Shown here: one piece after another, positions 2,216 through 61,162 of the stretch
Layout: every line of letters starts with the position of its first letter
Position numbering within the stretch: position 1 is the stretch's first letter
Source: Malacoraja senta
Lineage: Eukaryota
Assembly: GCA_038087875.1 (NCBI GenBank)
Contig: CM075992.1
Span: forward strand, 1-62,000
Reading direction: 5' to 3'
DNA: 62,000 bases
Notes under the pieces: model-generated
Database searches by the model: none
What the model saw: the letters and a program-made list of their open reading frames with translations, nothing else
What the model was told of the DNA's origin: nothing
Position numbers and translations under genes: made by a program

Positions 2216-2438
2216 CCCAGTAGCCTTTGCAAATCTCCCCGCCAGGATATTGGTCCCCCTCCTTCCGTAGCAATGAATTCCACAGATTCACCGCCATCCG
2301 ACTAAAGAAATTCCTCTCACCGTGCAGTATGCAGTGCAATGCAGTAAGTGTGTGGACAAAAAGATACTCCTGTCTACATTCTCCAGAGATGCTGCCTGAC
2401 AATCAGAGTTAAACTGGTACTTTGTCCACATATCAGAT

Positions 2439-2660
2439 GGGCCTGCAGTGCAGTGGATCACCAAAGGGTGGGAGTGTTGACCACAAACTGGACGGGTCTG
2501 CAGTGCAGTGGATCACCACATGGTGGGAGTGTTGACCACAAACTGGACGGGTCTGCAGTGCAGTGGATCATCACATGGTGGAAGTGTTGACCACAAACTG
2601 GACGGGTCTGCAGTGCAGTGGATCACCACATGGTGGAAGTGTTGACCACAAATTGGAGCG
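2439..2660 (+). repeat. 55-bp tandem repeat, 4 units (CTCF-motif-like family)
   Basis: Unit GGGTCTGCAGTGCAGTGGATCACCACATGGTGGGAGTGTTGACCACAAACTGGAC starts at 2439, 2494, 2549 and 2604. Confidence 0.95.
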
Positions 2661-2676
2661 ACCCGTTACACAAACT

Positions 2677-3148
2677 CAAGTTCAAGTTCAAGTGAGTTTA
2701 TTGTCATGTGTCCCTGATAGGACGATGAAATTCTTGCTTTGCTTCAGCACACAGAACATAGTAGGCATTTACTACAAAACAGATCAGTGTGTCCATATAC
2801 CATAATATACATATATACACACATGAATAAATAGACTGATAAAGTGCAAATAACAGATAATGGGTTATTAATGGTCAGAGTTTTGTCCGAGCCAGGTTTA
2901 ATAGCCTGATGGCTGTGGGGAAGTAGCTATTCCTGAACCTGGTTGTTGCAGTCTTCAGGCTCCTGTACCTTCTACCTGAAGGTAGCAGGGAGATGAGTGT
3001 GTGGCCAGGATGGTGTGGGTCTTTGATGATGCTGCCAGTCTTTTTGAGGCAGCGACTGCAATAAATCCCCTCGATGGAAGGAAGGTCAGAGCCGATGATG
3101 GACTGGGCAGTGTTTACTACTTTTTGTAGTCTTTTCCTCTCCAGGGCA
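2677..3148 (-). mobile_element. Rex1/Babar-like non-LTR element, 3' fragment
   Basis: (CTTGAA)n tail at 2677-2692. Near-identical to 8076-8570, which encodes LLPSGRRYRSLKTATTRFRNSYFPTAIRLLN. Confidence 0.75.
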
Positions 3149-3321
3149 CTGCCTCACTGCACATTTGGAGCGCTGTCTACAAATTAGATTAAATTGTTCT
3201 CTTTACTGCAAAATGTTGCTCGATTGCTTTGTGACCCGTTTCCTTTCCCCATAAAGCACCCATAGCCCAGATGCCAAAGTTTGTAAAAGCCCTGAAATCA
3301 GGGAAGATTTGGGATGAAAAT

Positions 3322-8075: not shown

Positions 8076-8570
8076 AAGTCAAGTCAAGTGAGTTTATTGT
8101 CATGTGTCCCTGATAGGACAATGAAATTCTTGCTTTGCTTCAGCACAACAGAACATAGTAGGCATTGACTACAAGGCATTCTATAAATATATACACACAT
8201 GAATCAATATACTGATAAATTGCAAATAACAGTATTGGGTAATAAAGTTCAGTGTTATGTCCGAGCCAGGTTTAATAGCCTGATGGCTGTGGGGAAGTAG
8301 CTGTTCCTGAACCTGGTTGTTGCAGTCTTCAGGCTCCTGTACCTTCTACCTGAAGGTAGTAGGGAGATGAGTGTGTGGCCAGGATGGTGTGGGTCCTTGA
8401 TGATACTGCCAGCCTTTTTGAGGCAGAGACTGTGATAGATCCCCTCGATGGAAGGGAGTTCAGAGCCGATGATGGACTGGGCAGTGTTTACTACTTTTTG
8501 TAGTCTTTTCCTCTCCAGGGCGCTCAAGTTGCTGAACCAAGCCACGATGCAACCAGTCAGCATGCTCTCT
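8076..8570 (-). mobile_element. Rex1/Babar-like non-LTR element, 3' fragment
   Basis: ORF 8255-8617: ESMLTGCIVAWF...IIKDPHHPGH..LLPSGRRYRS..RFRNSYFPTAIRLLN. (CTTGA)n tail. Confidence 0.8.
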
Positions 8571-11575: not shown

Positions 11576-11885
11576 GTCTATGTGTGGTACAATATTGATC
11601 AGTGATAATTGTTAATGATTGAAGCACAATGTGGAGCTGGAACTGATGCAGGGTGAATGTAAAATATTGGGCTGAAGAGACCTGAGGGGCATTCTTACTG
11701 TGAACCCAGTGATTTGGGACAATTAGTTTGCTGTGGATTGGAGTAAGGATGTGTAAAATTCCCCAAAGAGCTGATCCTATCTGTCTCCAATGTTTGAAGA
11801 CCCTTTGAAAGAGTGCAGATGAGATTTATGAGGATATTGCCAAGAATTGTTGTTGCTGCCAAGTCAAACCAGTACTATGTCCACA

Positions 11886-12292
11886 GTTTAGAAGGATGAG
11901 GGGGCTCTTATAGAAACAAATAAAATTATAAAAGGACTGGACAAGCTAGATGCAGGAAAAATGTTCCCAATGTTGGGGGAGTCCAGAACCAGGGGCCACA
12001 GTCTTGGAATAAAGGGGAGGCCATTTAAGACTGAGGTGAGAAAAAACGTTGTCACCCAAAGAATTGTGAATTTGTAGAATTCCCTGCCACAGAGGGCAGT
12101 GGAGGCCAAATCACTGGATGGATTTAAGAGAGAGTTTGATTGAACTCTAGGGGCTAGTGTAATCGTGGGGACATGGGGAGAAGGCAGGCACAGGTTATTG
12201 ATTGGGGATGATCAGCCATGATCACAATGAATGGCGTTGCTGACTCGAAGGGCCGAATGGCCTGCTCCTGCACCTATTTTCTATGTTTCTAT
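11886..12292 (+). mobile_element. CR1 3'-end fragment
   Basis: FRRMRG.LIET.KI..GLDKLDAGKMFP...; CTATGTTTCTAT tail. Confidence 0.9.
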
Positions 12293-12295
12293 ATG

Positions 12296-12420
12296 ACGGG
12301 CCTTCAGGGCAGCGGATCACCACACGGTGGGAGTATTGTCCACAAATTGGATGGGCCTGTTAAATGAATTTGCTGCACATTGGGAGCGCTGTCTACAAAT
12401 TAGAGAAAATTGTTCTCTTT
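12296..12420 (+). repeat. Dispersed copy of the 55-bp CTCF-like family (1 unit plus 1 degenerate unit)
   Basis: GGATCACCACACGGTGGGAGTATTGTCCACAAATTGGA. Shares the downstream flank GGAGCGCTGTCTACAAATTAGA..AAATTGTTCTCTTT with 3155-3204. Confidence 0.8.
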
Positions 12421-16267: not shown

Positions 16268-17584
16268 CTAACGGGTGGCACTGCAAACCCTTCCGGCCCG
16301 CGTGCGGTACGAGTCCGCCTCACCTCCTTTTACTGTAGAAGATATTGGGGAGGGAAATGGGGAAACGACCGGTGGCCCGACAGGCAGGGAGGGTGATGAG
16401 ATAGGCGAGCTAGTTGCCAAACGCCGCATGGAGACTGCAGTGGGAACAGTAGGTGGCAGCGGAAGCGAGACATCAAGATACGTAGTCGCAGGACACTGTT
16501 CCTTCACCGGAAGGATATGTTGACGGTTGCGTCTGTAAATGACTCGGTCCGCTTCGACCAGATAAGAGCGCGGCTCTTTGGCAGGGCTGTAGATGTGTCC
16601 CAGACGTGCATAGCCCTTGTTTATCTGGAGACGGGCCACTTGTCCACGAGTGAGAGGTTTAAGTGGCTTGCTGGACTTATCGAAGAAACGTTTCTGCGCG
16701 TCACGTTTGGATTGTAGTTGCTTCTGAACTGCAGGCGGAAAACGAACTTGTGGCTGCAAAAGCTGCTGGGACACAGGCAGTGGAGCACGGGTTTGGCGAG
16801 ACATCAGTCGTTGGCTGGAGAACCCAGTATGGGATCCTGTGCAATATTCCTTGGAGTTGAGCAAGTCCAGATACACATCTGTTTTGGCAAGGTATGACTG
16901 CTCCATGAGTTGTTTTGCACTCTGGACCGCGCGTTCGACAAGTCCGTTGGACTGGGAATTTGGGGCTGCTGGTAATATGTTGAAAGTCCCATTGTTTTGG
17001 AAAGTTTTTAAAAGCTTGGCTGGTGAACTGTCTGCCGTTGTCGGACTGGATACATGCAGGGGAGCCGTGCACGGAGAGGTGGCCATGCAACTTTCGATTA
17101 CGGCTTCAGAAGTAGTGGTTTGAAGTAAATGGATTTTGAACCAGCCACAGTAAGAGTCTACAAGAACCAGATAATGTTTCCCATGCCACTCGAAGATGTC
17201 GGTGGCTAACGTGGACCACGGGAGAGGTGGGACTGGATGCGGCAGTAAAGGCTGCTTTTGCTGATGTGGTGTCAGGCTTTTGCAGACGGCGCTAACTTCG
17301 TTTTTTTCTCGTATGTATTTGGTCATTCCGGGCTAGTAAAACATGCTTTGGAGGGTTGCCTCCACGCCAGGGTGGCCCCTGTGGTTGTTGTCAAAGTATT
17401 TGTCCCGGAAGGCTGGTGCGACCACTGCCTTGTGGCCCTTGACAATAATTCCGTCCTGTAATACCGGTTCATCGTGAAGCAGGAAGTATGGGCGTATCTC
17501 GAGCGGGGTATTGTGTTGTTTATCCAGCCAGCCACACCGGATGACTGCGGACAGCAATTGTAAGGTCTCATCAGCAGTCGTGTT
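16268..17584 (-). pseudogene. Gypsy integrase region (frameshifted)
   Basis: ORFs 17333-17602, 16268-17326 and 16701-17090 give the zinc-finger HRGHPG, then D..SDNGRQF..ER motifs. Confidence 0.88.
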
Positions 17585-19860
17585 ACATAGAAACATAGAC
17601 AATAGGAGCAGGAGGAGGCGGCCCTTCGAGCCAGCGCCGCCATTTCCTTGTGATCATGGCTGATTGTCTCCAATCAATGACCCGTGCCTGCCTTCTCCCC
17701 ATATCCCTTGATTCCACTAGCCCCTAAAGCTCTATCTAACTCTCTCTTAAATCCATCCAGGGACTTAGCCTCCGCTGCCCTCTATGGCAGGGAATTCCAC
17801 AAATTCACAATTCTCTGGGTGACATTTTTTTTTTCTCACCTCGGTCTTAAATGGCTTCCCCTTTATTCAAAGACTGTGGCCCCTGGTTCTGGACTCGCCA
17901 AACATTGGCAACATTTTTCCTGCATCTAGCTTGTCCAGTCCTTTTATAATTTTATATGTTTTTCCCCTCATCCTTCTAAACTCCAGTGAATACAAGCCTA
18001 GTCTTTTCTAACTTTCCTCCATCCCAGGGATTAATCTCGTGAACCTACGCTGCACTGCCTCAATCACAAGGATGTCCTTCCTCAAATTCGGAGACCAAAA
18101 CTGGACACAGTACTCCAGATGTGGTCTCACCAGAGCCCTATACAACTGCAGAAGAACCTCTTAACTCCTATACTGAAATCCTCTTGTTATGAAGGCCAAC
18201 ATTCCATTAGCTTTCTTCATTGCCTGCTGTATCTGCACGCCATCTTTCAGTGACTGGTGTACAAGGGACGCCCAGATCTCGCTGCACCTCCCCGTGCCCT
18301 AACCTAACCCCAATGAGATAATAATCTGCCCCCTTATTTTTGCCGCCAGTGGATAACCTCACATTTATCTATATTATACTGCATCTGCCATGCATCTGCC
18401 CACTCACTCAACCTTTCCAGGTCACCCTGCAACCTCCTAACATCCTCTTCACAGTTCACACTGCCACCCAGCTTTGTGTTCATCCGCAAACTTGCTAGTG
18501 TTGCTCCTAATTCCCTTTTCCAAATCATTAATATATGGTAAACAGTTGCGGCCCCAACACCGAGCCTTGCGGCACTCCACTCGCCACTGCCTGCCATTCT
18601 GTAAAGGCACCACTCCTACTCTTTGCTTCTTGTCTGCCAACCAATTTTCTATCCATGTCAACACCCTACCCCCAATACCATGTGCTCTAATTTTAGTCAC
18701 CAGTCTCCTGTGCAGGACCTTATCAAAGGCTTTCTGAAAGTCTAGATACACTACATCCACTGGCATCCCTTCATCCATTTTACTTGTCACATCCTCAAAA
18801 TTCCAGAAGATTAGAAACATGAATTCCCTTTCATAAATCGATGTTGACTTGGACTAATCCTTTTACTTCTATCCAAATGCCCCATTATAACCTCTTTAAT
18901 AATTGACTCCAGCATCTTTCCCACCACCGAAGTCAGGCTAACTGGTCTGTAATTCCCTGTTTTCTCTCTCGCTCCTTTCTTGAAAAGTGGGATAACATTA
19001 GCTATCCTCCAATTCACAGGATCCTGAATCTATTGAACATTGGAAAATGATCACCAATGTGTCCACTATTTCTAGAGCCGCCTCCCTGAGGACCCTGGGA
19101 TGCCAGACCCTCAGGCCCAGGGGATTTATCATCCTTCAGTCCATTAGCCTACCCAATACTATTTCTTGCCTAATGAAAATTTATTTCAGTTCCTCTACCC
19201 GCTTAGATCCTCTGTCCTCCAGTACATCAGGGAGATTGTTTGTGTCTTCCTTAGTGAAGACAGATCAGAAGTATCTGTTCAACGCTTCTGCCATTTCCTT
19301 GTTACCCATAATAATTTCACCCGTGTCTGCCTTCAAGGGACCCACATTTGACTTTGCTACTCTTTTCCCTTAACATATCTAAAGAAGCTTTTACTGTCCT
19401 TCTTTAAATTCCTGGCCAGCTTCCCTTCGTACTTCATCTTTTCAGCTCGTATTGTCTGTTTTGTTTCCTTCTGTTGTCCTATGAAAGTTTCCCAATCCTC
19501 TGGCTTGCGGCTACTCTTTGCTGTGTTATACATCTTTTTCTTTTAGTTTTATTCTATCCCTAACTTCTCTTGTCAGCCACAGTTGCCTCCTACTCCCCTT
19601 AGCATCTTTCTTCCTTTTTGGAATCAAATGATTCCAGATTATGCCCAGAGATTCCTGCCATTGCTGTTCCACTGTCATTCCTGCTAGGATCCCTTTCCAG
19701 ACTACCTTGGCCAGCTCCTCTCTCATGCCTTCATAGTCCCCTTTGTTCAACTGCATCACTGACATTTCCGATTTAACCTTCTCCTTCTCAAATTGCGGAT
19801 TAAAACTAATCATATTATGATCACTACCTCCAAGCGGTTCTTTTACCTCGAGTTCTCTTA
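17585..19860 (-). mobile_element. 5'-truncated CR1 inserted in Gypsy pol between RNase H and integrase
   Basis: Starts at EPLGGSDHNMISF; RT fragments follow; (CTATGTTT)-type tail at 17585-17600. Gypsy flanks rejoin as LAE..TTADETLQ. Confidence 0.92.
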
Positions 19861-21030
19861 TCTCTGTTTGTTCTGCTAGGCTGCTTAAACAGTCAGTTGG
19901 CACAAACAAAACCTTCATTACTGAGAATTGATTCTGTACGGAGAGTTGTTGTTTGTTAGTTTTACGCGGGGCTCTGGATAGAGTGTCTGCTATGTGCATG
20001 TCTTTGCCTTTCTTGTAGACAATGTTGAAATCAAATCGCTGCTGTTGCATCATCATACGCTGTAGTTGTGCTGGGGCAGCGTTGATGGGTTTGTTCAAAA
20101 TGGTGACCAGCGGCTGGTGGTCAGTCTCGATAGTAACAGACTTACCAAAGATAAAGTCCTTGAATTTAGTGCAGGTGAAAACAACTGCGAGCAGTTCCTT
20201 TTCGATCTGGGCGTAACGCTGTTCAGTGTCAGTCAGGGTACGGGAGGCGTACAAAACGGGCTTGAAATTGCCACCGGTAGTGGTCTGTAGACACGCTGCG
20301 CCTAGCCCGTACTGGGACGCATCGCAGGTGAGCGCTACCGGTAATTCCAAAGCAAAGTAGGCGAGAGTAGGTGCGCTAGCCAGCTGCAATTTGAGAGTGC
20401 CAAAAGCTGTTTGGTGTTGCAGGTACCAGGACCACGCCGTGTCCTTGTGTGTCAGTTCTCGCAGGGGGCCAGATATGTCACTGAGGTTGGGAATAAATTT
20501 ACCCAGGTAGTTGACCATTCCGAGGAACCTTTGTAAGCTCATGACGTCAGTAGGAACCAACATTTCGTTGATAACTGGTTTTCGACGGGTCTGGTTTGAG
20601 ACCATCACTAGTGAACACATGTCCGACGTAAGTAACCTCTGGAACTCGAAACCTGCACTTCAGGGGATTGAGTTTGAGCTGAATGTCTTTGGCACGGTGA
20701 AGTACTTTCTTCGGACTGGTGTCATGTTCAGCCAGATCGCGTCCGTAGACGAGAATATCATTAACAATGATGGCGCATGGGTACTCTGCAAACAATTGTT
20801 CCATGGTGCGCTGGAAAACTTCGCTGGCAGAGTTGATGCCAAAGTGCATTCTCAGAAATTTATATCGGCCAAAGGGGGTGCCGAACGTAGTGAGATTGGA
20901 CAAGTCTGGGTCCAGTGGAATCCGCCAAAATGAGCTTTTGGCATCCAGAACTGAGAATACTGCTGCGTATCCTATCTGGGCAGCAACTTCTTCTGTCGTA
21001 CGCATTGGGTAATGTGGGCATTTAATGGCA
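19861..21030 (-). pseudogene. Gypsy RT-RNase H (one frameshift)
   Basis: ORFs 20547-21005 and 19526-20620 (Gypsy part). Confidence 0.9.
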
Positions 21031-21031
21031 G

Positions 21032-21048
21032 TCCCACTTCTGACACCA
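21032..21048 (-). other. Primer-binding site complementary to the tRNA-Leu 3' end
   Basis: Minus strand TGGTGTCAGAAGTGGGA directly after the 5' LTR's terminal CA. Matches the vertebrate tRNA-Leu(CAA) end ...UCCCACUUCUGACACCA (from memory). Confidence 0.85.
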
Positions 21049-21246
21049 TGTAATGAGTGGACTCAAACACACATCAAGATACAACACATGTTTATTAAAT
21101 CTACATCAGCAAGGATCTGCAGTCATCACATCTCCAAGCTGCTACTCATTCTAATTAGTGTACGCAGGCTCTTGATTCTATGAAGCACGTAATAGGCGGA
21201 GTCACTACTAACAAACACTTGGCTAGTATGAAGTACCCAGTCTACA
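21049..21246 (-). repeat. Gypsy 5' LTR
   Basis: TG...CA termini; AATAAA on the minus strand; repeat of 15978-16173. Confidence 0.9.
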
Positions 21247-22150: not shown

Positions 22151-22380
22151 GCCACAAATTTATTTAGTTAGGGGTTCGTGAATTTGTAGAATTCATCGCC
22201 ACACACGGTGGTGGAGGCCAAGTCATTAGGTATGTTTAAGGGAAGATTGACGCAGTCTTGATTAGTAAAATCATTAAGAGTTAAGGGGAGAAGGCAGGAG
22301 AATGAGATGGAATGATAGATCAGCCATGATTGAATAGACTCGATGGGCCAAAGTTAGTTACAGCTGTAAATACAGACTAT

Positions 22381-22637
22381 CGCAATTTGTGGTCAACACT
22401 CCCACCCAGTGGTCACTGCTGTAATTGCAGGCCGTCTCAAATTTTGGCCAACACTCCCACCCAGTGGTCACTGCTGTAATTGCAGGCCGTCGCAATTTGT
22501 GGCCAACACTCCCACCCAGTGGTTACTGCTGTAATTACAGGCCATCAGAATTTGTTGCCGACACTCCCACCCAGTGGTCACCCACTCTAACTACAGGCCG
22601 TTGTAATTTGTGCCCGACACTGCCACCTAGTGCTATG
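22381..22637 (-). repeat. 55-bp tandem repeat, ~4.5 units, same family as 2439-2660 but inverted
   Basis: Units at 22381, 22436, 22491, 22546 and 22601. Minus-strand unit ACGGCCTGCAATTACAGCAGTGACCACTGGGTGGGAGTGTTGGCCACAAATTGCG. Confidence 0.93.
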
Positions 22638-22766
22638 CGCCCTAAGTACCAGGCAGTGGTCGCCACTCCTCGCAATTCCCTGGTCCCACTCGTCTCGTGT
22701 GTCAGTGCATCTCCATCCCCCCCAATAGTTCACGTTCAAGAGTTCAAGAGACATTTATTAGCACAT

Positions 22767-22997
22767 TGTGGCGGGAACTGGCAGGAGTCCAGCCAAAAAC
22801 TAGTCGGACACAAGTTGTGTGCTCTAGACGTTATTCTTCTGCATACAGCTCCCCACTCCTCAGCTGACATGGGCGTTGCCCGGCCTTAAATAACAACTCG
22901 GATACCGATCTCGTGACTTGCGCCTCCCCCACCAAGACGCCGCCCTCTGGAGCCAATGGTTCGTTGTGACCTTGGGTTGCTATCAGGTGCCGCCACA
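22767..22997. mobile_element. Solo LTR (231 bp), Gypsy-type
   Basis: TGTGGCGG...CCGCCACA termini; 4-bp TSD ACAT (22763-22766, 22998-23001). Sits inside a Rex-like tail. Confidence 0.85.
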
Positions 22998-23032
22998 ACA
23001 TGCACCTATTGGTACAGTGAGATTTGAATTAC

Positions 23033-25300: not shown

Positions 25301-25509
25301 CTGATGAACATAAAATCAGGTGAACAAAGAGAAAGATGACTGATCTTTATTGCCTAACCTCACAGTGGGAACATTGATTCCGCTGTGTGGGAATGTTCAT
25401 GTGAAACTCTATTGTGTATTGTGTTTTTTATTTGTATGGCTGTAGCATAACTCAAATCTCACTGTACCAATTGTTGCATGTCACAATAAATGAACATGAA
25501 CTTGAAATC

Positions 25510-26525
25510 TCTGGATTATCCTTGGGATAACCTCTCTCTCAATGTCAGCAAAACTAAAGAGTTGATCGTGGACTACAAGAGACAGCAGGGGAGTGGACAC
25601 CTTCCCATCCACATCGGTGATGCTGCGGTTGAAAGGGTCAGCAGCTTCAAGTTCCTCAGTGTGCACATCACTGAGGACCTCTCCTGGACACTGCACACGG
25701 ACAGAGCCCGCCAGCGGCTCTTTTTCCTGAGAAGACTGAGGAAGTTTGGCATGAACGCCAGCATCCTCACAAACTTATACAGATGCACCATCGAGAGCCT
25801 GCTGATGGGCTAAGGGGGAAATCCTTTAAGACCGAGATGAGGAAAAACTTTTTCACACAGAGAGTGGTGAATCTCTGGAACTCTCTGCCACAGAGGGTAG
25901 TTGAGGCCAGTTCATTGGCTATATTTAAGAGGGAATTAGATGTGGCCCTTGTGGCTAAAGGGGTCAGGGGGTATGGAGAGAAGGCAGGTACGGGATACTG
26001 AGTTGGATGATCAGCCATGATCGTATTGAATGGTGGTGCAGGCTCGAAGGGCCAAATGGCCTACTCCTGCACCTATTTTCTATGTATCTATGTATCTATG
26101 TATCACGGTCTGGTACGGGAATTGTTCTGCTGTTCCACAGCCACAAATCACTATAGACAGTGGTGAAGGCGGCACAGCAACTGGCAACTGTCTCCCGGCC
26201 ATTCAGGACATTTTCCACCAGCGGTGCCTGCGGAAGGCACACTGCATCATCAAGGACCACAGCCACCCAGCACCCAGACTGTTCTCCTTGATACCGTCAG
26301 GCAGACGATACAGGAGCATGGCTGCATGCACCACCAAAGAACAGTTTTTACCATCAGGCCATCAGGCTTCTGAACTCATAAACAAATTAATCAACACATG
26401 ACCTTACTAATGTCATTTTTATCTTATTTTATCCTTGTTATATTATTGCTGACTCGTTGTCTTGTCAAACACATTTCATTGTACCGTTGACCCTGTGTTA
26501 ACCTACATATGACAAATAAAACTGT
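25510..26525 (+). mobile_element. Rex1/Babar-like 3' portion, interrupted by a CR1 3' end (25811-26100)
   Basis: NLSLNVSKTKELIVDY...RQRLFFLRRLRKFG...TIESLL, resuming at ITVWYGN...IIKDHSHPA..PSGRRYRS; AATAAA end. Confidence 0.85.
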
Positions 26526-30480: not shown

Positions 30481-31655
30481 GGAAATCCGACCACTCACTG
30501 ATTGCATCTAACAAAAGCAAACTCACTGAATGACCACTCTGACGAAACGCCACCTAACCGAAAGACTGTGTCGCCTACAAGCCAACAAACCGAATGCCGC
30601 TCAACAGAAAAGTCAAATAATGGACATGACGTTGCCGGGGGGCGGGACTTGTCAGCAATTGGTCCAGACCCCCGCATCCATCACATCACTGGCCGGTGGA
30701 GAAGGGAGGGTGGGGGTCATTTTCCCACACAAGCCATAGGTGACTGAGCACTCTGAACCCGAGCACCACGTTGTAAGCGGCCGAAGGTGTGCATCCCTCG
30801 GGACAGCCCCCACTCTCCCATGGCCGCCCTCCGCCTCATCTCCCCCACTGTCACGGGCTGTGGGTCGGGTGGAGCAGAGGTGTGGGACAGGCTGGTCCCT
30901 CCTCCCACCCAGGGTCACTGACCACGATGCCAAGGGGGGGGGGGGTGAGTGGGAGGAGATAAAATTGTTCGTTGTTATGCACACTTGTCATCGGCCCGCC
31001 AGGGAATGTGTGTGTGTCCCCATGTTTTAAAAGCGATTACTATGTCCCAAGCCATCTTTCCCCGTGGCCGGGGTGGGGGTGAATCACTCGGTGTGGGTGT
31101 CACGGTCCGGGGGTCGGAGGGGGGGGGGAATCACCCTGGTGTGAGGGTTGAGGTCCGATGGCGGTGCATCGCGGTCAGTGACTCTGGATGGGCGGAGGGA
31201 CCAGCCTGTCCCACACCTCCACTCCACCCGACCCACAGCCCGTCACAGTGCGGCCACTGGGGGAGACGAGGCGGAGGGTGGCCGTGGGAGAGTGGGGGCT
31301 GCCCCGAGGGATGCACACCTTCGGCCGCTTACAACTTGGTGCTCGGGTTCAGAGTGCTCAATCACCTATGGCTTGTGTGGGAAAATGACCCCCACCATCC
31401 GGTCTCCACCAGCCAGTGATGTGATGGATGCAGGGGTCTGGACCAATCGCTGACAAGGCCCGCCCCCCGGCAACGTCATGTCCATTATTTGACTTTTTTG
31501 TTGAGCGGCATTTGGTTCGTTGGCTTGTAGGCAACGCAGCCTTTCGGTTAGTTGGCTTTTAGGCGTCCAGCCCTGTCGGTTAGTTTGCTTTTAGGCGTCC
31601 CACCCTTTCGGTTAGTTGGCATTTGGGCTTCGTTTCCATTCGGTTATTTGGCTTC
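30481..31655. mobile_element. Foldback/MITE-like element with ~380-bp inverted arms
   Basis: 30549-30930 is the reverse complement of 31166-31556 (one 10-bp indel). ~32-bp subterminal repeats TCGGTTAGTT(G/T)GC. No TSD found. Confidence 0.8.
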
Positions 31656-31781
31656 CACTTCTTTGCTTCGGCTTCTCGTCCTTCGACGCCACGTCCGCAC
31701 ACGTCCGCACACCCCCAATGTTCACCACTCTGGCATCGACTCCCAGTCTTGGACCTCGCTTAATCTTAACCCGAACATTTA

Positions 31782-32121
31782 AGGGCCTGTCCCACTGTAC
31801 GAGGTAATTCAAGACTTCTCCCGAGTTTTCCCCGATTCGAACTCGGAGAATGTCCGTAACGGGTCCGTAGGCGTTCGTGGATTTCTCGTAGCGGTACTAG
31901 TAAAAAGTAACCTTTTTTTTTCATCACGAGTTTTTTTACTCGTGGGTATTTTTCAGTGTTGAAAAAACGTCACGAGTTTACCGGATTTCCCAAAATGCTA
32001 CTGTTAGCATTACAAACCGCTACGAGACATCCACGAACTCCTACGGACCCGCTACGGACATTCTCCGAGTTCGAATCGGGGAAAACTCGGGAGAATTACC
32101 TCGTACAGTAGGACAGGCCCT
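31782..32121. mobile_element. PIF/Harbinger-type MITE (340 bp, largely palindromic)
   Basis: TIR AGGGCCTGTCCCACTGTACGAGGTAATT / AATTACCTCGTACAGTAGGACAGGCCCT. TTA TSD at 31779-31781 and 32122-32124. Confidence 0.9.
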
Positions 32122-33859
32122 TTACCCACATTTATTTTCACAATCTCTTTACCTCTCTAACACACTGTTGTTTTAAGATGTCCTTTTAAGATGGAGATGT
32201 CAAACCCAGGGAGTGTCTGTTCACTTTCCAATCTGTGCGAAAAGACGAGACGTTAGGTGACCCGTAGAATGCTGCCGAAAGTAAGCGGTACATTGTCTTA
32301 GAATACATGGGATCATGTGTTAATCTATTATCTTTCTGAATTTCTTGCTTTTTTTCCTATTTTCAAGATTGAAATAGTTCAAAACTCAAACAGACAATTT
32401 GCTCCAAGGGATGAATGCTGCACAATGTATCTCTGACTTCCCACCTCCTCCACTTGTCTTCTCCAGTCAGTATCTTCTCACATATTTATCAGGTTTCAGG
32501 TCAAGTCGAGCTTATTGTCAGATGCACGTGCAGAGAGGCACAGGTACAATGAGAATCGTGCTTGAAGCAGTATCACAGACACACAGACAACACAGAAAAT
32601 TATGACCTATACACAGTTTATGAACAGTGAAAAAAAATGGGTAAAAAGAACAACGATACAAAATGCTGGAGTTGTGGCGCCTTCATGCCCACGTTGGTTT
32701 TTGCAAACAGCCTATCACCGCTGGCGACTCACCAGCAGCCTCACGAGAAGGTCCAGCCATAAGAGCTCAATAACTCCAAGGTCAGACGCACTAATTGGCC
32801 TTATCTACACATGGGTTATGATGGGTGAGAATGTAGGTTAAAGGGGCTTCTGGAATACATGTGACACAAGGTGTCTGGCTCAGCTAAGTGTTATTTGTTC
32901 TTAGCTTTCTGTCATTGGATTCAGTAGGTCCTGCAGAGTACCTCAGAGGGCCAGGCGGCATCTCTGGAGAAAAGTGTCAAGTGAAAAGGTGATGTCAAGA
33001 CCCTCCTTCAGATATTAGAGATTAGATGAATATATTAGTGTAAAAATGCAAATCCATGATGGTATGACAGGTGGTCTGTTGTGTTCCACTGCTGTGATAA
33101 GATTCCGATTGTGTAGGCTGGTTTAAGATCGTGATGGCTGTAGGCATATAACTGTTCCTGAACCTGGTGTTCTGTACCTCCTACCCGATGGTGGCAGCAA
33201 GAAGATGGCATTACCTAACAATAGTAACTGTCCTTAAATCACCTCATTTTCTGCAGCACTGAAAGGTGGTAATAAAACAGAAATTCACTCCCAAACAGTT
33301 GTGTCCACTACTCCCAGAAGTTCCATATTCTCACATGCTCTGTGTTAAATGTTGCTCCTGAATTTTCAGCAGATTTCTTTGTGCTCCATGTACAGGCACT
33401 TGACTGCTGTGTTCCCATTTTGTTATTTATGCCCTATGTTCTGCTTCTTTTACCTGAATCCTTTCTAATTTGAGCTATTGTAAAGGCATGTGATTGCATT
33501 CTTCTCAACAGGATCATTTGGTCCTCAGCTGCCCTGTTCTCGAAAGAGCTCTCAATGATTGACAACAAACTGCCCAGCCCTCTTTCTTGCAAACCACTCC
33601 ATATTACTGCATCCTCGACTTTTCGAAGAAACTGACGCTTCAGCCTTGCAGCACATTGTTCCTAATCCCACCATCGTGTCTGACCCATTTCTTCTCGCCT
33701 GTCTCTCCAACACTTTGCTGTGTTGTGTAGGACTACGCATTTCAGAATACAGTATCATCGTTTCCTTAAAAAAGCAATATTATTATTGTTAGATATTGTG
33801 GTCTATTTTCATTATTTTCCTTAGCCTCTTGATATTCTGATTGTTTATACAATATAACA

Positions 33860-37018: not shown

Positions 37019-38226
37019 CAGGGCCGGATTTACGTATAAGCTAGACAAGCTTAAGCTTAGGGCCTCGAGATCTAGGGGGGGCCTACTCACCTTGCTGCCT
37101 CACCGGACCCGTCGAACCTCACCGACCATCCGCCCACCGGGACCTCCTACTCTTTGCCCGCTGACCCTGGCCACTCCACCGCCCTCCAGCAGCCCGCAGC
37201 CGTCGCCTTACCTGCAGCCTGGACTCAGCACTGGGCCTGAAGTTTCCACGCTGCAGACTCCAACTCCCCTGGGTTTGACTGCGCTGAGTCCTAGTGCTAG
37301 GCCCCCCAACCTTGGTAATCTCAGTGGCTGATCCACTGGGTCTTCCTCACTCCCCTCAAACCATGTGACCCCAGCTCTTCCCCACCCACACTATAGTCCT
37401 CATACCCCCCTACCACCTGACCACCCCTCCAGCAGACATCGCCTTGGCCTCAGTCCACTCACCTGCCTTCCTCCGGCCCCAACCCCCATCCCTGCCGTGT
37501 GTTCACCATCCCCCCTGACCTCCCCCTCTCAGATACCGAACGGTCTGTCCTCAGCAGAGGCCTCACCTTTGTCCCCCTCCGTCCCCACCTCAATGAGTTC
37601 CGCGCCCGCCGTGATTTGGAACTTTTCTTCCGTCGCCTCCACCTCACATCGTTCTTCCATGGGAAGGAGTCCTCGCCCCCATTGATGATCCCTTTTCCCG
37701 TCTCCAACGGACCCCCTCCTCTTGGACCCCCCCTCATGGCCATTGGTACAATGAAATTTGGGGGTCACCATGTGACGTCGGAACGGGAGAACATTCTCAG
37801 CAGCTTGGACTTCCGAATCGGCCACTTCCTACTGGAGAACGCGGCTCCCGAAGTCCACAGGCTGAGCTGGGCGGAGATCCACGCTGGCGGCCCTCGGCAA
37901 AGGGTTCCCAGGGCTCCACGATATTAAAATCAGCGTGGCCCGAGGCTGGAAGCTCCGCAAACCACAGCTCCATGATGTTGAAGCAGCAGGCCCAACACTC
38001 CAGAGCTTCAAACGGTGATCCAGGTAAGGCATCACCCGCTCCGCAGTGAATCCAATATGTATTTTAAAACCAACTGTTTAATGACAACATACAGTAGGAT
38101 CTAAAAGTGTCACACTGTCACTGTCGGGTAGTCATGGTCCTCTAGTCGTGGGGGTGGGGGATTGGGAGGGGCGGGGCCTCACAAGTGAAATAGCTTAGGG
38201 CCTCTCTTCATCTAAATCCGGCCCTG
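37019..38226. mobile_element. Non-autonomous hAT-type element (1208 bp) carrying a Penelope ORF fragment
   Basis: TIR CAGGGCCGGATTTA / TAAATCCGGCCCTG. 8-bp TSD GACCCACA at 37011-37018 and 38227-38234. Subterminal GCTTAGGGCCTC near both ends. Inserted in a V-SINE tail. Confidence 0.9.
37490..37745 (+). pseudogene. Penelope-like ORF N-terminal fragment
   Basis: FTIPPDLPLSDTERSVLSRGLTFVP...DLELFFRRLHL matches the LS..E..VLSKGL.F.P motif upstream of the PLE RT. Confidence 0.75.
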
Positions 38227-43279: not shown

Positions 43280-44408
43280 TGAAGGTAGACAAAAGTGGTG
43301 GAGAAATCAACGGGTGCAGCAGCATCTATGGAGCTAAGGAAATAGGGAACGTTTCGGGCCGAAACTCTTCTTCAGACAGATGTAGGGTGGGGGGGGGAGG
43401 GGGGTGCGGGGAGAAGAAATGAAAAAGGAAGAGGAGGAGCCCGAGGGCTGAGGGAGAGCTGAGAAGGGGAGGAGACAGCAAGGGCTACTGGAAATTGGAG
43501 AATTCAATGTTTATGCCGCTAGGGTGCAGACTGCCCAAGCGGAATATGAGGTGCTGCTCCTCCAATTTCCGGTGGTCCTCACTCTGGCCATGGAGGAGGC
43601 CCAGGACAGAAAGGTCAGATTTGGAATGGGAGGGGGAGTTGAAGTGCTGAGCCACCGGGAGATCAGGTTGGTTAATGCGGACCGAGCGGAGGTGTTCGGC
43701 GAAACGATCGCCAAGCCTAAGCTTGGTCTCACCGATGTAGGTCAGCTGACATCTAGAGCAGCGGATGCAATAGATGAGGTTGGAGGAGGTGCAGGTGAAC
43801 CTCTGTCGCACCTGGAACGACTGCTTGGGTCCTTGAATGGAGTCGAGGGGGGAGGTAAAACGACAAGTGTAGCATCTCTTGCGGTTGCAAGGGAAAGTGT
43901 CCGGGGAGGGGATGGAAGGGATGGAAGGGAAGAATTGACCAGGGAGTTTCGGAGGGAGCGGTCTTTGCGGAAAGCAGACAGGGGGGGAGATGGGATGATG
44001 TGGCGAGTGGTGGGGTCACGTTGGATGTGGCGAAAATGACGGAGGACTATTTGTTGTATGTGACGGCTAGTGGGGTGAAAGGTGAGGACTAGGGGGACTC
44101 TGCCCTTGTTACGAGTGGGGGGATGGGGAGAGAGAGCAGTGTTGCGGGGTATTGAAGAGACCCTGGTGCGAGCCTCATCTATAGTGGAGGAGGGGAACCC
44201 CCGTTCCCTGAAGAATGAGGACATTTCCGATGCCCTGGTGTGGAACACCTCATCCTGGGAGCAGATGCGGCGTAGACCGAGGAATTGGGAGTAGGGGATG
44301 GAGTCCTTACAGGAAGCAGGGTGGGAGGAAGAGTAGTCTAGATAGCCATGGGAGTCAGTGGGTTTATAGTGAATGTCAGTCAGAAGTCTATCACCTGCGA
44401 TGGAGTAA
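43280..44408 (-). mobile_element. Penelope-like element: RT C-terminus, GIY-YIG endonuclease and hammerhead terminus
   Basis: TDIHYKPTDSHGYLDYSSSHP..KDSIPYSQFLGLRRICS; FTCTSSNLIYCIRCSRCQLTYIGET..RFAEH. Minus-strand CTGAAGAAGAGTTTCGGCCCGAAACGTT at 43348-43376. Confidence 0.92.
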
Positions 44409-45979
44409 GTTGATATGGGTGAACAAAGGTCAGAGATGAATTGAAGACAAAAGGCTGTGAGTTGAGATGGAGAGTGAAATGGACACCCAGAGGAAGGGAT
44501 GTCAGTGGACGGAGACATGGGGGAAGAGGTACAGCGGCAGGATGGTGGGAGAAATTGGTGCACATTCAGGTCTAGCATAGGAAAGAGAGGTGGGTGTGGG
44601 GGGAGAGGGGAGTGGGAATGTTTGGCTTGTTACCCAAAATTGGAGAATTCAATATTCAGGCTATTCTGTTGTAAGTTACCTAAGCCGAATATGAGGTGCT
44701 CTTCCTCCAGTTTGCATGTGGCCTCACTCTGGCAATGAAGGAGGCCTCAGACAGAAAGGTCAGTATTGGAATGGGAAGGACAGTTAAAATGGTTAGCAAC
44801 CAGGAGATCCAGCAGGCCTTGGCGGACCAAACGCAAGTGTCCGGCTAAACGGTCGCTGAGTCTACATTTAGTCTCGCCAATGTGAAGGAGGCAACAATGG
44901 GAGCACTGAATAGATGAGGTCCAGCTTTTTGTGTCTATCTTAGGTTAGAGGAGGTGCATGTAAACCTTTTTCTCACCTGGAAGGACTGCTGGGGTCTCTG
45001 GATGGATATGAGACTATTTGTTGTATGTGACGGCTAGTGGGGTGAAAGGTGAGGACTAGGGGGACTCTGCCCTTGTTACGAGTGGGGGGATGGGGAGAGA
45101 GAGCAGTGTTGCGGGGTATTGAAGAGACCCTGGTGCGAGCCTCATCTATAGTGGAGGAGGGGAACCCCCGTTCCCTGAAGAATGAGGACATTTCCGATGC
45201 CCTGGTGTGGAACACCTCATCCTGGGAGCAGATGCGGCGTAGACCGAGGAATTGGGAGTAGGGGATGGAGTCCTTACAGGAAGCAGGGTGGGAGGAAGAG
45301 TAGTCTAGATAGCCATGGGAGTCAGTGGGTTTATAGTGGATGTCAGTCAGAAGTCTATCACCTGCGATGGAGTAAGTTGATATGGGTGAACAAAGGTCAG
45401 AGATGAATTGAAGACAAAAGGCTGTGAGTTGAGATGGAGAGTGAAATGGACACCCAGAGGAAGGGATGTCAGTGGAAGGAGACATGGGGGAAGAGGTACA
45501 GCGGCAGGATGGTGGGAGAAATTGGTGCACATTCAGGTCTAGCATAGGAAAGAGAGGGGGGGTGTGGGGGGAGAGGGGAGTGGGAATGTTTGGCTTGTTA
45601 CCCAAAATTGGAGAATTCAATATTCAGGCTATTCTGTTGTAAGTTACCTAAGCCGAATATGAGGTGCTCTTCCTCCAGTTTGCATGTGGCCTCACTCTGG
45701 CAATGAAGGAGGCCTCAGACAGAAAGGTCAGTATTGGAATGGGAAGGACAGTTAAAATGGTTAGCAACCAGGAGATCCAGCAGGCCTTGGCGGACCAAAC
45801 ACAAGTGTCCGGCTAAACGGTCGCTGAGTCTACATTTAGTCTCGCCAATGTGAAGGAGGCAACAATGGGAGCACTGAATAGATGAGGTCCAGCTTTTTGT
45901 GTCTATCTTAGGTTAGAGGAGGTGCATGTAAACCTTTTTCTCACCTGGAAGGACTGCTGGGGTCTCTGGATGGATATGA
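44045..45979. repeat. 967-bp near-perfect tandem duplication (44045-45011 / 45012-45979)
   Basis: Only a handful of differences seen. Each unit is a young PLE RT piece plus an older PLE GIY-YIG remnant. Confidence 0.95.
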
Positions 45980-47559
45980 GGGAAAAGTATAGATACAGGT
46001 GTTACATTGTATGTGACGAGGTAGTGTTTGGGAGGGAACGGATGAATGAATGAGGGAGCGGTCTCTGCTAGGCCTTACTGTGTCCACTTGATCCTGAGGG
46101 GCAAGGGCCATGGGCTGTGGTGCCGGAGGGAATGGGAGGGCTAACAGTGTGCTTTTTACACCACAGATTCTGCTTTGTGATGTGGTCTGGAGCAGCTTGT
46201 AGGACCGTCGCTATTGCAAACTATCATATTGTAATTCCATGACTAACAATGCAATTACATGTCAATTGCTTTTGCTATTACATTGATGTCAGCATAGCAT
46301 TAACGGATATTAATCCCTCCTCCACTGCAAACCTTACACAGCTGTCCAACCAGACCGTGCTCCTGTGCCTACACTGTCATTTACCCCACTGTAAGTTTTC
46401 TATCTGCTCAAAGTAATTTGTTTCCGGTTGAGGAAGCTTCCTTATCACCTTGTGTGTGCATTCCTTTTTCCTTGTGTGTTGTCCCTGGAGGTTACAGGAC
46501 CTGCTGCAGCGCAGGGTGAACCTGACAGGTGCCATAACAGAAATATGCAAACACGTCATTTGTATTAGGCTAAACATTCCTGTTGACCAAGATGAGAACA
46601 GTCCCCTTCCTGCACTAATTAGGACAGATAACACCAATGCAAAATGCCAGATTCACAACTGTCATGGACTATGAATAATGTCAGTTGAAATAGACTGTGT
46701 TTCTTGCCAGGATCAAACATCTGCTGCTAAATATTCTAATTGTTATTGCTCTTTTCTATTTCTGGATTTATTGGCTGGTGCTGTGACCTTGCAAGGTTTA
46801 CAGGAGGGCAGTTGTGTCAGGAAAGTGAAAATTGCATTGTGTTTAGGGATTTGCAAGTCAAATGATTAACTCTTTTCCCTTCTTGGGAACTTGCTTGCAC
46901 TTCCTAGGGAGGGGATGTAGGCATTTTGGGGGCTTGGTCTGGCTGTGGCAAACCTGCCTCTGCTCCACAGGATGTCTTACGTCCAGTCCTAAAACACTGC
47001 CTCTGCTACTCTGCTATGACAATGCTCTCTCTCTGTTCTGGCACCTCCTTATCTTCTAGCAATCCTGCAGGCCCAACATGGATTAACCCAAAGTCAACCT
47101 ATTTCCACATTTTATAGATCCCGCAGGGAATTTAGGCAAAGCAGCTATCAGGCGAGTTCGTATTATCAACTTATTCTATTTAATTATTAAAAAGCTGTTC
47201 AAATGTCACACAAATTCATCAAGTTTAAAATAGCAACTATAATTCACTTTAGAAGGACATAGGTCTGCAGTATCAAGGGTGTGCAGAGTGGGCGAGATGG
47301 TGCAATAAATCATGATTCGTTAAGCCCAGCCAACATTGATTTCAAAAGCCGGAAATCTGTAGAAAGGAAGGACAGGAAATCAGAATCTCCATTGCTTGAC
47401 GATCAGGATGATGGCAAGTTCATTGACAGACCGTGATTCTAGCAACTTTGGGTTGTGGAACAAAAATTATCACCTTTAGAGACAGGAGGCCATGAGCATG
47501 TCTTGGTAATGCGAAAGCAAGGTCTATGAACAATATTGCCAGCAGGTGACAAGCAAGGT

Positions 47560-54100: not shown

Positions 54101-55829
54101 CGACAGATTATCTCCATACCCAGGCTGTAGATATGCAGCTGCAGTATGAGAAGACTTCCTATTGAGATTGGGTAGAATAATCAAGTAAAGCCTACTTCTC
54201 ATCTCTTTAACCATTCGGGTTCTGTTTCTTTAACCTCTACCAGGTGTTGTATTAGATCACACTCCACGTTTGCTGCAGTGGTGGTTGTAGTACTCCCACA
54301 TTGCCCTGAGGTGGTGCCTGCAGGTTTGTGGCTGACAGTCATGCTGCCACAGGCTTGGCTCCAACCCTCCAGAGCTGCCTTAGCACAGCACAGCACACCC
54401 TGTTATATGGAACACTGTGATTAATATCATCCATCATCCAATGGACATCATGGATAGACTTCCTGGTCAATGACACGGCTTTCAACACCAGAGGGCAATA
54501 ACAAGGAACTCCGCGAGACAATAACCAAAGCAAATCACTATTATCCAAAAGACAGTGCTTTCAATAGTGGAGTTTTCTGGCTGAGGACCGAGATTTCCAC
54601 CAGTGGCTCTGGAATGGAGTTGAAGCTACAAGTTTTCCAAGTCAATAAGCTACTGACTGAGCCACAGCATAATCTGAAGGAGCACAGGGGCAGAGATGAA
54701 GTATACCCCATCCTGGGACAACAGGCTGAATGATCAACCTGACCTCAAACCAACCAGAAGTCACGCTCACCCCTCTGGACCAACTGCTGCATTACATAAA
54801 ACCTCGTACACAGAACAGTAGAGTACAGGAACAGGCCATTCGGCCCACTATGTCGAATATGAAGCCACGTTTAACTAGCTCCCTCTGCCTGCACGTGATC
54901 CATATCCTTCCATTCCCTGCATATCCACGTGCCTGTCTAAAAGCCTCTTAAACACCACTGTCATATCTGCCTCCACCACCACCCCTGCAGCACATTGCAG
55001 GCCCCCACCACCACTTGCTCCGCACACCTCCTTTAACTTTGCCCCTCTCACCTTAAAGCTATGCCCTCTAGTCTTTCCACCACTATGTTTCAGTGAATAT
55101 TTTTAAGGCAGAGATAGGTAGATTCTTGATTAGTACAGGTGTCAGAGGTTATGGGGAGAAAGCAGGAAAATGGGGTTAGGAAGGAAAGATAGACCAGCCA
55201 TGATTAAATGGTGGAGTAGGTAATGGGCCAAATGGCCTAATTCTACTCCTATCACTTGTGACCTTAGGACCACCCTCAGTGAAAGATTCTGACTGTCCAC
55301 CCTATTCACGACTTTGGTTTACACCAGCCCTTCCCAACTGAACTCCGCCTTCCCATAAATCCCATAATATCTTTTCCAATAGCTACTACAGATCATTGAC
55401 CTGAAATGTTACCCATGTTTCCTACTCCATAGCTGCTGCCTTCCTCATTGAGTATTTCCAACATCTTAAGTTTCAAATTCATATTTTGCTAATCATTTTA
55501 CTTCATGTTCCCTCATTTCTGATTCTTCATCTTCTGAGACATTCTTTCATGGAATAAACTTGACAGATTAATTTATTCATTAAGTATGCGGATATCCTTG
55601 TACAGCATTGGCCAGTGCCAAATTTGTTCCATGGCCTGACTATCGTGGTGGGTCATTTCAGAATCAACCACACTGGGCAGTCTGGGCATTGGGCACTGGG
55701 CAACCACATAGTCCAGGCCAGCTGAGATCTCCTTCTCTGAGGAAATTAGTGAAGCAGATTGTTTAATTTTTAATCTGTCAATCCTGCAGTTTAAAGTTTA
55801 CCAGCTCTGCAACTGTATACAACATTGAT

Positions 55830-60704: not shown

Positions 60705-61162
60705 AATGAAAATGAAATGAGTTGTTTGGCCTGCCCTGTGCTTGAAACTGCAATGGCAATGGAAGTGAATGAAAATGTAATCAGCTGTTTGCCCTGCCCT
60801 GTGCTTGAAACCACAATGGCAATGGAAGTGAAATGAAAATGCAATCAGCTGTTTGGCCTGCCCTGTGCTTGAAACTGCAATGGCAATGGAAGTGAAATGA
60901 AAATACAATCTGCTGTTTGGCCTGCCCTGTGCTTGAATCTGCAATGGCAATGGAAGTGAAATGAAAATGCAATCAGCTCTTTGGCCTGCCCTGTGCTTGA
61001 AACTGCAATGGCAATGGAAGTAAAATGAAAATACAATCAGCTGTTTGGCCTGCCCTGTACTTGAAACTGCAATGGAAATGGAAGTAAAATGAAAATGCAA
61101 TGAGCTGTTCGGCCTGCCCTGTGCTTGAATCTGCAATGGCAATGGAAGTGAAATGAAAATGA
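60705..61162 (+). repeat. 64-bp tandem repeat (~7 units; resumes at 61836-61910)
   Basis: AAATGAAAATGCAATCAGCTGTTTGGCCTGCCCTGTGCTTGAAACTGCAATGGCAATGGAAGTG, period 64 (60831, 60895, ...). Confidence 0.95.

Follow-up and report, generated by a model that had tools for sequence, protein, structure and literature searches.

A multi-copy 55-bp repeat in the skate Malacoraja senta whose units resemble a full-length CTCF site with an off-consensus core

The array, its relatives and its surroundings

The sequence analysed here comprises positions 1 to 62,000 of contig CM075992.1 of Malacoraja senta (GCA_038087875.1), referred to below as the window, and near its beginning lies a tandem repeat (array 1; Table 1) that Tandem Repeats Finder delimits at 2439-2657, with a period of 55, 4.0 copies, 95% matches and zero indels. 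The 55-bp tandem array proposed for this site in the initial annotation is therefore real, consisting of four 55-bp units that are 95% alike, and any two units are identical at 49-53 of 55 positions. All four contain an upstream block, CTGCAGTGCA, with a core-like block 5 nt further 3′, as that annotation had described, but the core it quoted, TCACCACATGGTGGGAGTG, is matched exactly in unit 2 only. Core positions are counted here from the first C of the core, after the numbering used in PMC10484683.

Array 1 had been read as a minisatellite; however, it does not stand alone: the window contains three loci of its family, which is multi-copy and has a common head and tail. A search of the window with a 21-base pattern returned 10 matches against 0.02 expected, and these fall in array 1 (+), a single unit at 12296-12350 (+, locus 2) and five units at 22364-22657 (−, locus 3). 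A head of 30 bases and, at the other end, a degenerate last unit with a tail are common to loci 1 and 2, whose likeness ends there, and both loci have been split by later repeat insertions (2679-3152 and 11892-12292, respectively), the former of which is flanked by 4 identical bases (2675-2678 and 3153-3156). The units of locus 3 are identical to those of array 1 at 29-38 of 55 positions, which is below the identity within array 1. The CTCF-like motifs of each array run in one direction, with four units on the plus strand at 2437-2656 and five on the minus strand at 22364-22657, and the two arrays face each other 20 kb apart with mostly transposon DNA between them. On inspection by eye, a 9-base word in the head of array 1 (2414-2422) recurs within the edge unit of locus 3, in its upstream part (about 22644-22652, −). 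The head may be the deletion product of a first unit similar to that edge unit.

Table 1. Features of the three loci of the repeat family, with scores in bits for the core alone and for the core plus upstream motif (composite)
Feature	Position	Strand	Core	Composite	Remarks
Array-1 element head (about 30 bp, in part degenerate unit end)	2407-2436	+			Aligns to 11862-11891
Array 1, unit 1	2437-2491	+	4.6	12.6	Upstream motif from 2444, core from 2461; A at core 4, G at core 6, G at core 12
Array 1, unit 2	2492-2546	+	7.5	15.5	Sole unit with the quoted core; T at core 6, G at core 12
Array 1, unit 3	2547-2601	+	6.8	14.8	T at core 1, T at core 6, A at core 12
Array 1, unit 4	2602-2656	+	11.6	19.6	T at core 6, A at core 12
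Degenerate terminal unit, first part	2657-2678	+			Split by insertion; aligns to start of locus-2 terminal unit
Repeat fragment inserted in array-1 element	2679-3152	−			Likely LINE 3′ end; second copy 8079-8274, 81% alike
Remainder of terminal unit and tail, array-1 element	3153-3204	+			45/48 identical to 12373-12420, where likeness ends
Locus 2, head	11862-11891	+			Aligns to array-1 head
Retroposon 3′ fragment between locus-2 head and unit	11892-12292	+			Probably CR1-like; several paralogous window copies
Locus 2, one full unit, then terminal unit and tail	12296-12420	+	7.4	7.2	Family-majority C at core 6
Locus 3, four units	22364-22601	−	10.1-11.7	12.9-21.0	Diverged subfamily; 32-38/55 identical to array 1, ungapped
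Locus 3, edge unit	22602-22657	−	14.2		A at core 6 and C at core 12

Eight runs are listed as containing the repeat; contigs from four of them, each from a different organism (A, B and C among these), were aligned to 2400-2680 at 80% likeness and show related sequences to be abundant. The numbers of aligned contigs per run were 180, 152, 462 and 280, with summed depth peaks of 7.9e3, 1.8e4, 1.4e5 and 1.8e5 over the core and downstream part and a lowest single-contig depth, among those listed, of 4, 4, 6 and 60; neither contig counts nor summed depth equal copy number, and they suggest, as a rough estimate, that the loci of the family number in the hundreds and its units in the thousands. In organisms A and B, contigs continue from 2657-2678 into the terminal unit without the insert, and the 30 bases at 11832-11861 of the window recur as the loose end of a 199-base contig of organism B that continues into units without the 400-base insert. 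Locus 2 is therefore likely older than its insert and than the split from organism B. Loose ends before 2417 in contigs of organisms A and C agree at just 0.63-0.71 (4 contigs each). The family is probably clustered, because under random spread a second locus within 10 kb would be improbable: with 500 loci in an assumed 2.5 Gb the estimated chance is 0.004, and with 10,000 loci 0.08. No RNA run was found among the listed runs holding the repeat, and three scans of metagenome and viral contigs with exact short patterns of the repeat all gave 0 matches.

Several element classes were considered for the family and set aside. A non-autonomous DNA transposon (MITE, hAT type) was rejected on account of a head and tail without terminal inverted repeats, no arm pair joining the two having been found in the three regions scanned, and inspection by eye for Helitron or LTR ends gave nothing consistent between loci and no target duplication. 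A structured RNA or tRNA-derived element was rejected with 0 Rfam matches and 0 tRNA genes, a hairpin with a unit that folds no better than its shuffles (z-scores of −0.84 to 0.76 in 4/4 sequences), and a coding repeat with a period that is not a multiple of 3 and a 154-aa frame over locus 3 that lacks a Pfam match.

The window as a whole is rich in transposons, 43% of it lying in self-repeats. Pfam matches were obtained in 8 of 31 open reading frames of at least 150 aa, every one of them to a retroelement domain, and in one of 63 shorter frames, this set being drawn from 77 listed, the remaining 14 of which are located in sequence previously assigned to retroelements. The single match among the shorter frames, to ALKBH8_N (25490-25810, +, E 1e-9), is in LINE-looking sequence, and this model is one that we take to match LINE ends. 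No host gene near the array was recognised by Pfam among the frames tested, a search that could miss short exons, and there was no support for the further idea of a setting in a protocadherin- or Ig-type gene cluster. For a CR1-type reverse transcriptase frame, the closest named sequences by identity among the 120 relatives listed are those of Leucoraja erinacea (90%), Mobula hypostoma (83%) and Hypanus sabinus (74%), which places the host among the skates or closely related batoids. Broken pol fragments of LTR retrotransposons (RT and RNase H by Pfam) at 16268-17332 and 19526-21062 (−) are split by a CR1-like insertion, and a foldback-like element at about 30545-31655 has inverted arms that are several hundred bases long and ends in 32-base tandem repeats. 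Terminal inverted repeats were seen by eye at about 31780-32122 and 37020-38226, which are likely non-autonomous DNA transposons, and a near-identical direct duplication of about 970 bases, LINE-like in sequence (about 44045-45000 and 45015-45990), may be either recent or an assembly artefact. An unrelated 64-base tandem array at 60705-61161 (7.2 copies, 92% alike) has no CTCF likeness.

Likeness of the unit to the two-part CTCF site

Cores were scored with a matrix reconstructed after JASPAR MA0139.1, in which p<1e-4 corresponds to 7.85 bits, and the upstream motif with a matrix built by hand from motifs quoted in PMC12885311 and PMC10287918; because the latter matrix was made after the unit had been seen, the composite test is somewhat optimistic. 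On the core alone just one of the four array-1 units reaches p<1e-4, and the scores of units 1-4 are matched by 17.7%, 6.8%, 4.6% and 0.9% of 1000 shuffles, while at the other loci the threshold is passed by all five units of locus 3 (10.1-14.2 bits) and by 0/1 at locus 2. The composite scores of array 1 are reached by 11, 1, 0 and 0 of 1500 dinucleotide shuffles. When about 124,000 positions of the window are ranked by this score, the first nine places go to nine of the 10 family units, the locus-2 unit, whose upstream motif is damaged, comes at rank 20, and the other tandem-repeat rows tested score at most 1.1 bits (14/14). Owing to the common ancestry of the units, these nine top ranks have to be counted as one or two events rather than nine. 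The initial annotation had expected that a scan with core and composite matrices would place the units above their shuffles, and this is borne out for the composite, which at most 11 of 1500 shuffles reach, but is borderline for the core alone.

The spacing of the two blocks, which the same annotation had taken to fit a CTCF core and upstream motif, does so. In the Spec-seq reference site given in PMC10287918, TGCAGTGCCC starts 17 bases before the core, and the array-1 upstream block likewise starts 17 nt before the first C of the core and is identical to the reference upstream part in 8/10 letters; in all four units the motif thus lies within the 17-18 bases before that C that are expected of a full-length vertebrate CTCF site. 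Judged from scores and spacing together, the CTCF-like layout of the unit is beyond chance.

A comparison of the two subfamilies, with one unit taken from each, shows that they are about two-thirds alike overall and that the likeness is distributed in blocks: 5/6 of the first six upstream bases, 13/15 of core positions 1-15 and 6/6 of positions 16-21 are identical, against just 2/11 for the last four upstream bases and the spacer, and the 17-base offset is retained. The low spacer identity can also be aligned as two offsetting one-base gaps. The 3′ linker is identical at 8/10 positions, and as the block common to the subfamilies thus extends past any CTCF contact, its conservation need not reflect CTCF. 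Positions 19-21, where ZF1 of CTCF is described as reading GAG (PMC10484683), are GAC or GGC in 8/10 units, and GAC in array 1.

Across the whole window, CTCF core matches at p<=1e-4 with the reconstructed matrix number 27 against 12.4 expected. Single core matches of 13.9-16.3 bits that lack an upstream motif are found at 54482 (+), 16443 (+), 35337 (−) and 47536 (+). Adjoining locus 3 is an element of about 235 bases (22765-22999) with short inverted ends, solo-LTR-like in appearance, which holds a 15.8-bit core match at 22956 (−) in the same orientation as locus 3.

Core mismatches and variation among related contigs

The consensus core, CCNNNAGGGGGCGC, as quoted in PMC10287918, has A at position 6 and C at position 12. 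Neither base occurs in any of the four array-1 units, and among the 10 family units of the window the combination is confined to the locus-3 edge unit, whose core begins with G and whose upstream motif is poor. The two mismatches extend through the family: position 6 is occupied by C or T, and position 12 by G. Within the window, A6 is absent from 9/10 units and G12 is found in 7/10. In the reconstructed core matrix, G is the rarest base at position 12 (−5.3 bits). C12 is read by Glu362, a residue conserved across vertebrates according to PMC10484683. The working IL3 insulator site is given with A at core 12 (PMC12885311), the base found in array-1 units 3 and 4. For cores of intermediate strength, a strong upstream motif adds as much as 4 kT, but it does not rescue a defective core, according to PMC10287918, and in the upstream-motif study as described there positions 6 and 12 are left unvaried. 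Within array 1, unit 4 is, on its predicted core and composite scores, the strongest CTCF candidate.

Among the contigs of the four organisms, C makes up 51-91% of depth at core 6 (position 2521) and the remainder is mostly the T of the window, and at core 12 (position 2637) G makes up 95.6-99.3%; a change to A6 or C12 was found in none of the 40 difference rows listed out of 45 for the four organisms, with variants of at least 5% of depth included. The T at core 6 most likely represents CpG decay of C and not a change from A. Of the two deviations at conserved core positions named in the initial annotation, both are present, and family-wide, but derivation of T6 from A is less likely than the decay of C. 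The C/T ratio at core 6 of the CpG at core 6-7 (2521-2522) varies widely, and no G>A at core 7 is listed at 5%. In three of the four runs, by contrast, about 10% of the spacer CpG carries G>A. The lack of listed G>A at core 7 could reflect selection on a G in putative contact with CTCF, or subfamily structure.

Origin of the repeat and its place among CTCF-bearing repeats

Taken together, the full-site layout and the difference at two key contact bases suggest that the unit is likely the attenuated descendant of a CTCF site, and a weak binder at best. On balance we consider it probable, from the DNA as read here, that array 1 belongs, as a single locus, to a skate repeat with many copies, that the unit of this repeat derives from a full-length CTCF site and was multiplied in tandem after two core contact bases had been lost, and that it would now bind CTCF weakly or not at all. 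Under this scenario an ancestral full-length CTCF site would have been duplicated into the 55-base unit, A6 and C12 would have been lost early, the units would have been homogenised within loci, and the array would have been multiplied together with its head and tail. The locus-3 edge unit, with A6 and C12, may be a relic that escaped homogenisation, although it could have gained both bases by chance. Present-day CTCF binding would be weak, and best at array-1 unit 4 and at locus 3. We thus infer descent from a true CTCF site, local homogenisation of the units and low affinity. The two-part resemblance pointed out in the initial annotation is real, but its wording that every unit is a full CTCF site and that the repeat multiplies insulator sites overreaches, given core mismatches that run through the family.

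A stronger functional reading, which widens the proposal of the initial annotation from the array to the whole family and in which the arrays are working CTCF platforms whose moderate sites use ZF9-11 and ZF1 contacts to offset the two core mismatches and whose same-direction units jointly stall cohesin, is possible but unlikely. It draws on the upstream motif at the exact offset with 8/10 reference letters, on an upstream effect that is greatest on middle-strength cores (PMC10287918), on cores that pass the threshold by themselves in array-1 unit 4 and throughout locus 3, and on a core-7 G without listed CpG decay; furthermore, a screen cited by PMC12885311 obtained insulation from 2-4 tandem sites with the upstream motif, and both the orientation-biased motifs at TAD borders of skates (PMC10115646) and the two-part motif of lamprey CTCF (PMC5504073) speak for it. 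However, the cores of 3/4 array-1 units miss p<1e-4, G12, the rarest base of the matrix, dominates the family, variants toward A6 or C12 are absent among the rows listed, and a strong upstream site is reported to leave a defective core unrescued (PMC10287918). Array 1 and locus 3, moreover, converge over a distance of just 20 kb, which is largely transposon sequence and in which Pfam recognised no host exon. A still more elaborate version is speculative and somewhat more doubtful. In it, skates would possess short arrays by the hundred, made of CTCF sites that are full-length (ZF1 to ZF11) but attenuated in a CpG-containing core, and these arrays would act as tunable multi-site cohesin barriers, clustered in certain chromosomal regions and giving up core strength in exchange for copy number.

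It is improbable that the units serve another protein, such as another zinc-finger protein, RUNX or a transposase of the element itself, with the CTCF likeness as a side effect. Conservation and depth are both greatest in the latter half of the core and the downstream linker (bins 2510-2549), where all four array-1 units match the RUNX pattern RACCRCA perfectly, and the CTCF mismatches are fixed rather than scattered; yet a degenerate 7-base pattern would be matched by chance in a few percent of 55-mers and was noticed post hoc, the upstream motif at −17 in two subfamilies would be left unexplained, and for a transposase the terminal inverted repeats that mark DNA transposons are lacking. More improbable still is a neutral minisatellite with a chance likeness to CTCF sites, for which it can be argued that the core scores of units 1-3 do not clearly exceed those of shuffles, that the top ranks reduce to one or two events through common ancestry, and that the upstream matrix postdates the first sight of the unit. 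What counts against chance is the rarity with which shuffles reach the array-1 composite and the low scores of all 14 other repeat rows, together with an offset that equals that of the independent published site (PMC10287918) and is kept in two subfamilies.

CTCF logic applies to the skate and batoid group: CTCF motifs at TAD borders of the little skate are orientation-biased (PMC10115646), the CTCF of a batoid restores loops when placed in human cells (10.64898/2026.10.19.760054), and the combination of core and upstream motif is in use as early as lamprey CTCF (PMC5504073), each as reported in the source given. Among known systems, the Dxz4/DXZ4 macrosatellite (PMC5899087) resembles the skate array in carrying CTCF-type motifs head to tail, in one direction, within a tandem repeat. 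As described there, however, Dxz4 is one locus with demonstrated CTCF binding and a structural role, whereas the skate family has many copies, with 55-bp units in arrays of 1-5 units and off-consensus, putative CTCF cores. The lamprey hAT-Tip100 repeat 274 and other repeats (PMC5504073), which carry a CTCF-type site to many places in the genome, and the sites borne by rodent B2 SINEs (PMC10982698) are likewise comparable as multi-copy repeats. These transposon-borne sites are reported to have canonical motifs under ChIP peaks (489/586 copies for repeat 274) and belong to a known element class, in contrast to the tandem copies, two fixed core mismatches and missing terminal inverted repeats of the skate family. 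At the level of the site itself, IL3-type insulator sites (PMC12885311, PMC10287918) have a TGCAGT-type upstream motif at a regular offset before a CC-starting core, as do the skate units; in these papers they keep A at core 6, unlike 9/10 of the skate units, 7/10 of which have G at core 12. If the skate repeat functions at all, it would do so in the manner of the same-direction motif bank of Dxz4 or of transposon-borne CTCF sites. It fits neither type, since its core departs from the consensus, the marks of the element classes looked for are absent and its binding of CTCF is a predicted one.

The spread of CTCF sites by repeats is already known for mammals and lamprey; in our literature search we found no description of a CTCF-site-spreading repeat in sharks or rays, none of core mismatches in tandem CTCF sites and none of this 55-bp repeat, which may already bear a name in repeat libraries (Dfam, Repbase). 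PMC6251859, PMC9605692 and 10.1101/2025.06.08.657570 likewise contributed no information about it. If the arrays do not bind CTCF, they would constitute an unremarkable repeat in which the erosion of an old CTCF site can be read. If they do bind, they would provide a natural many-copy test of how upstream and downstream contacts and tandem copies offset a poor core, and may be a source of lineage-specific boundaries in skates.
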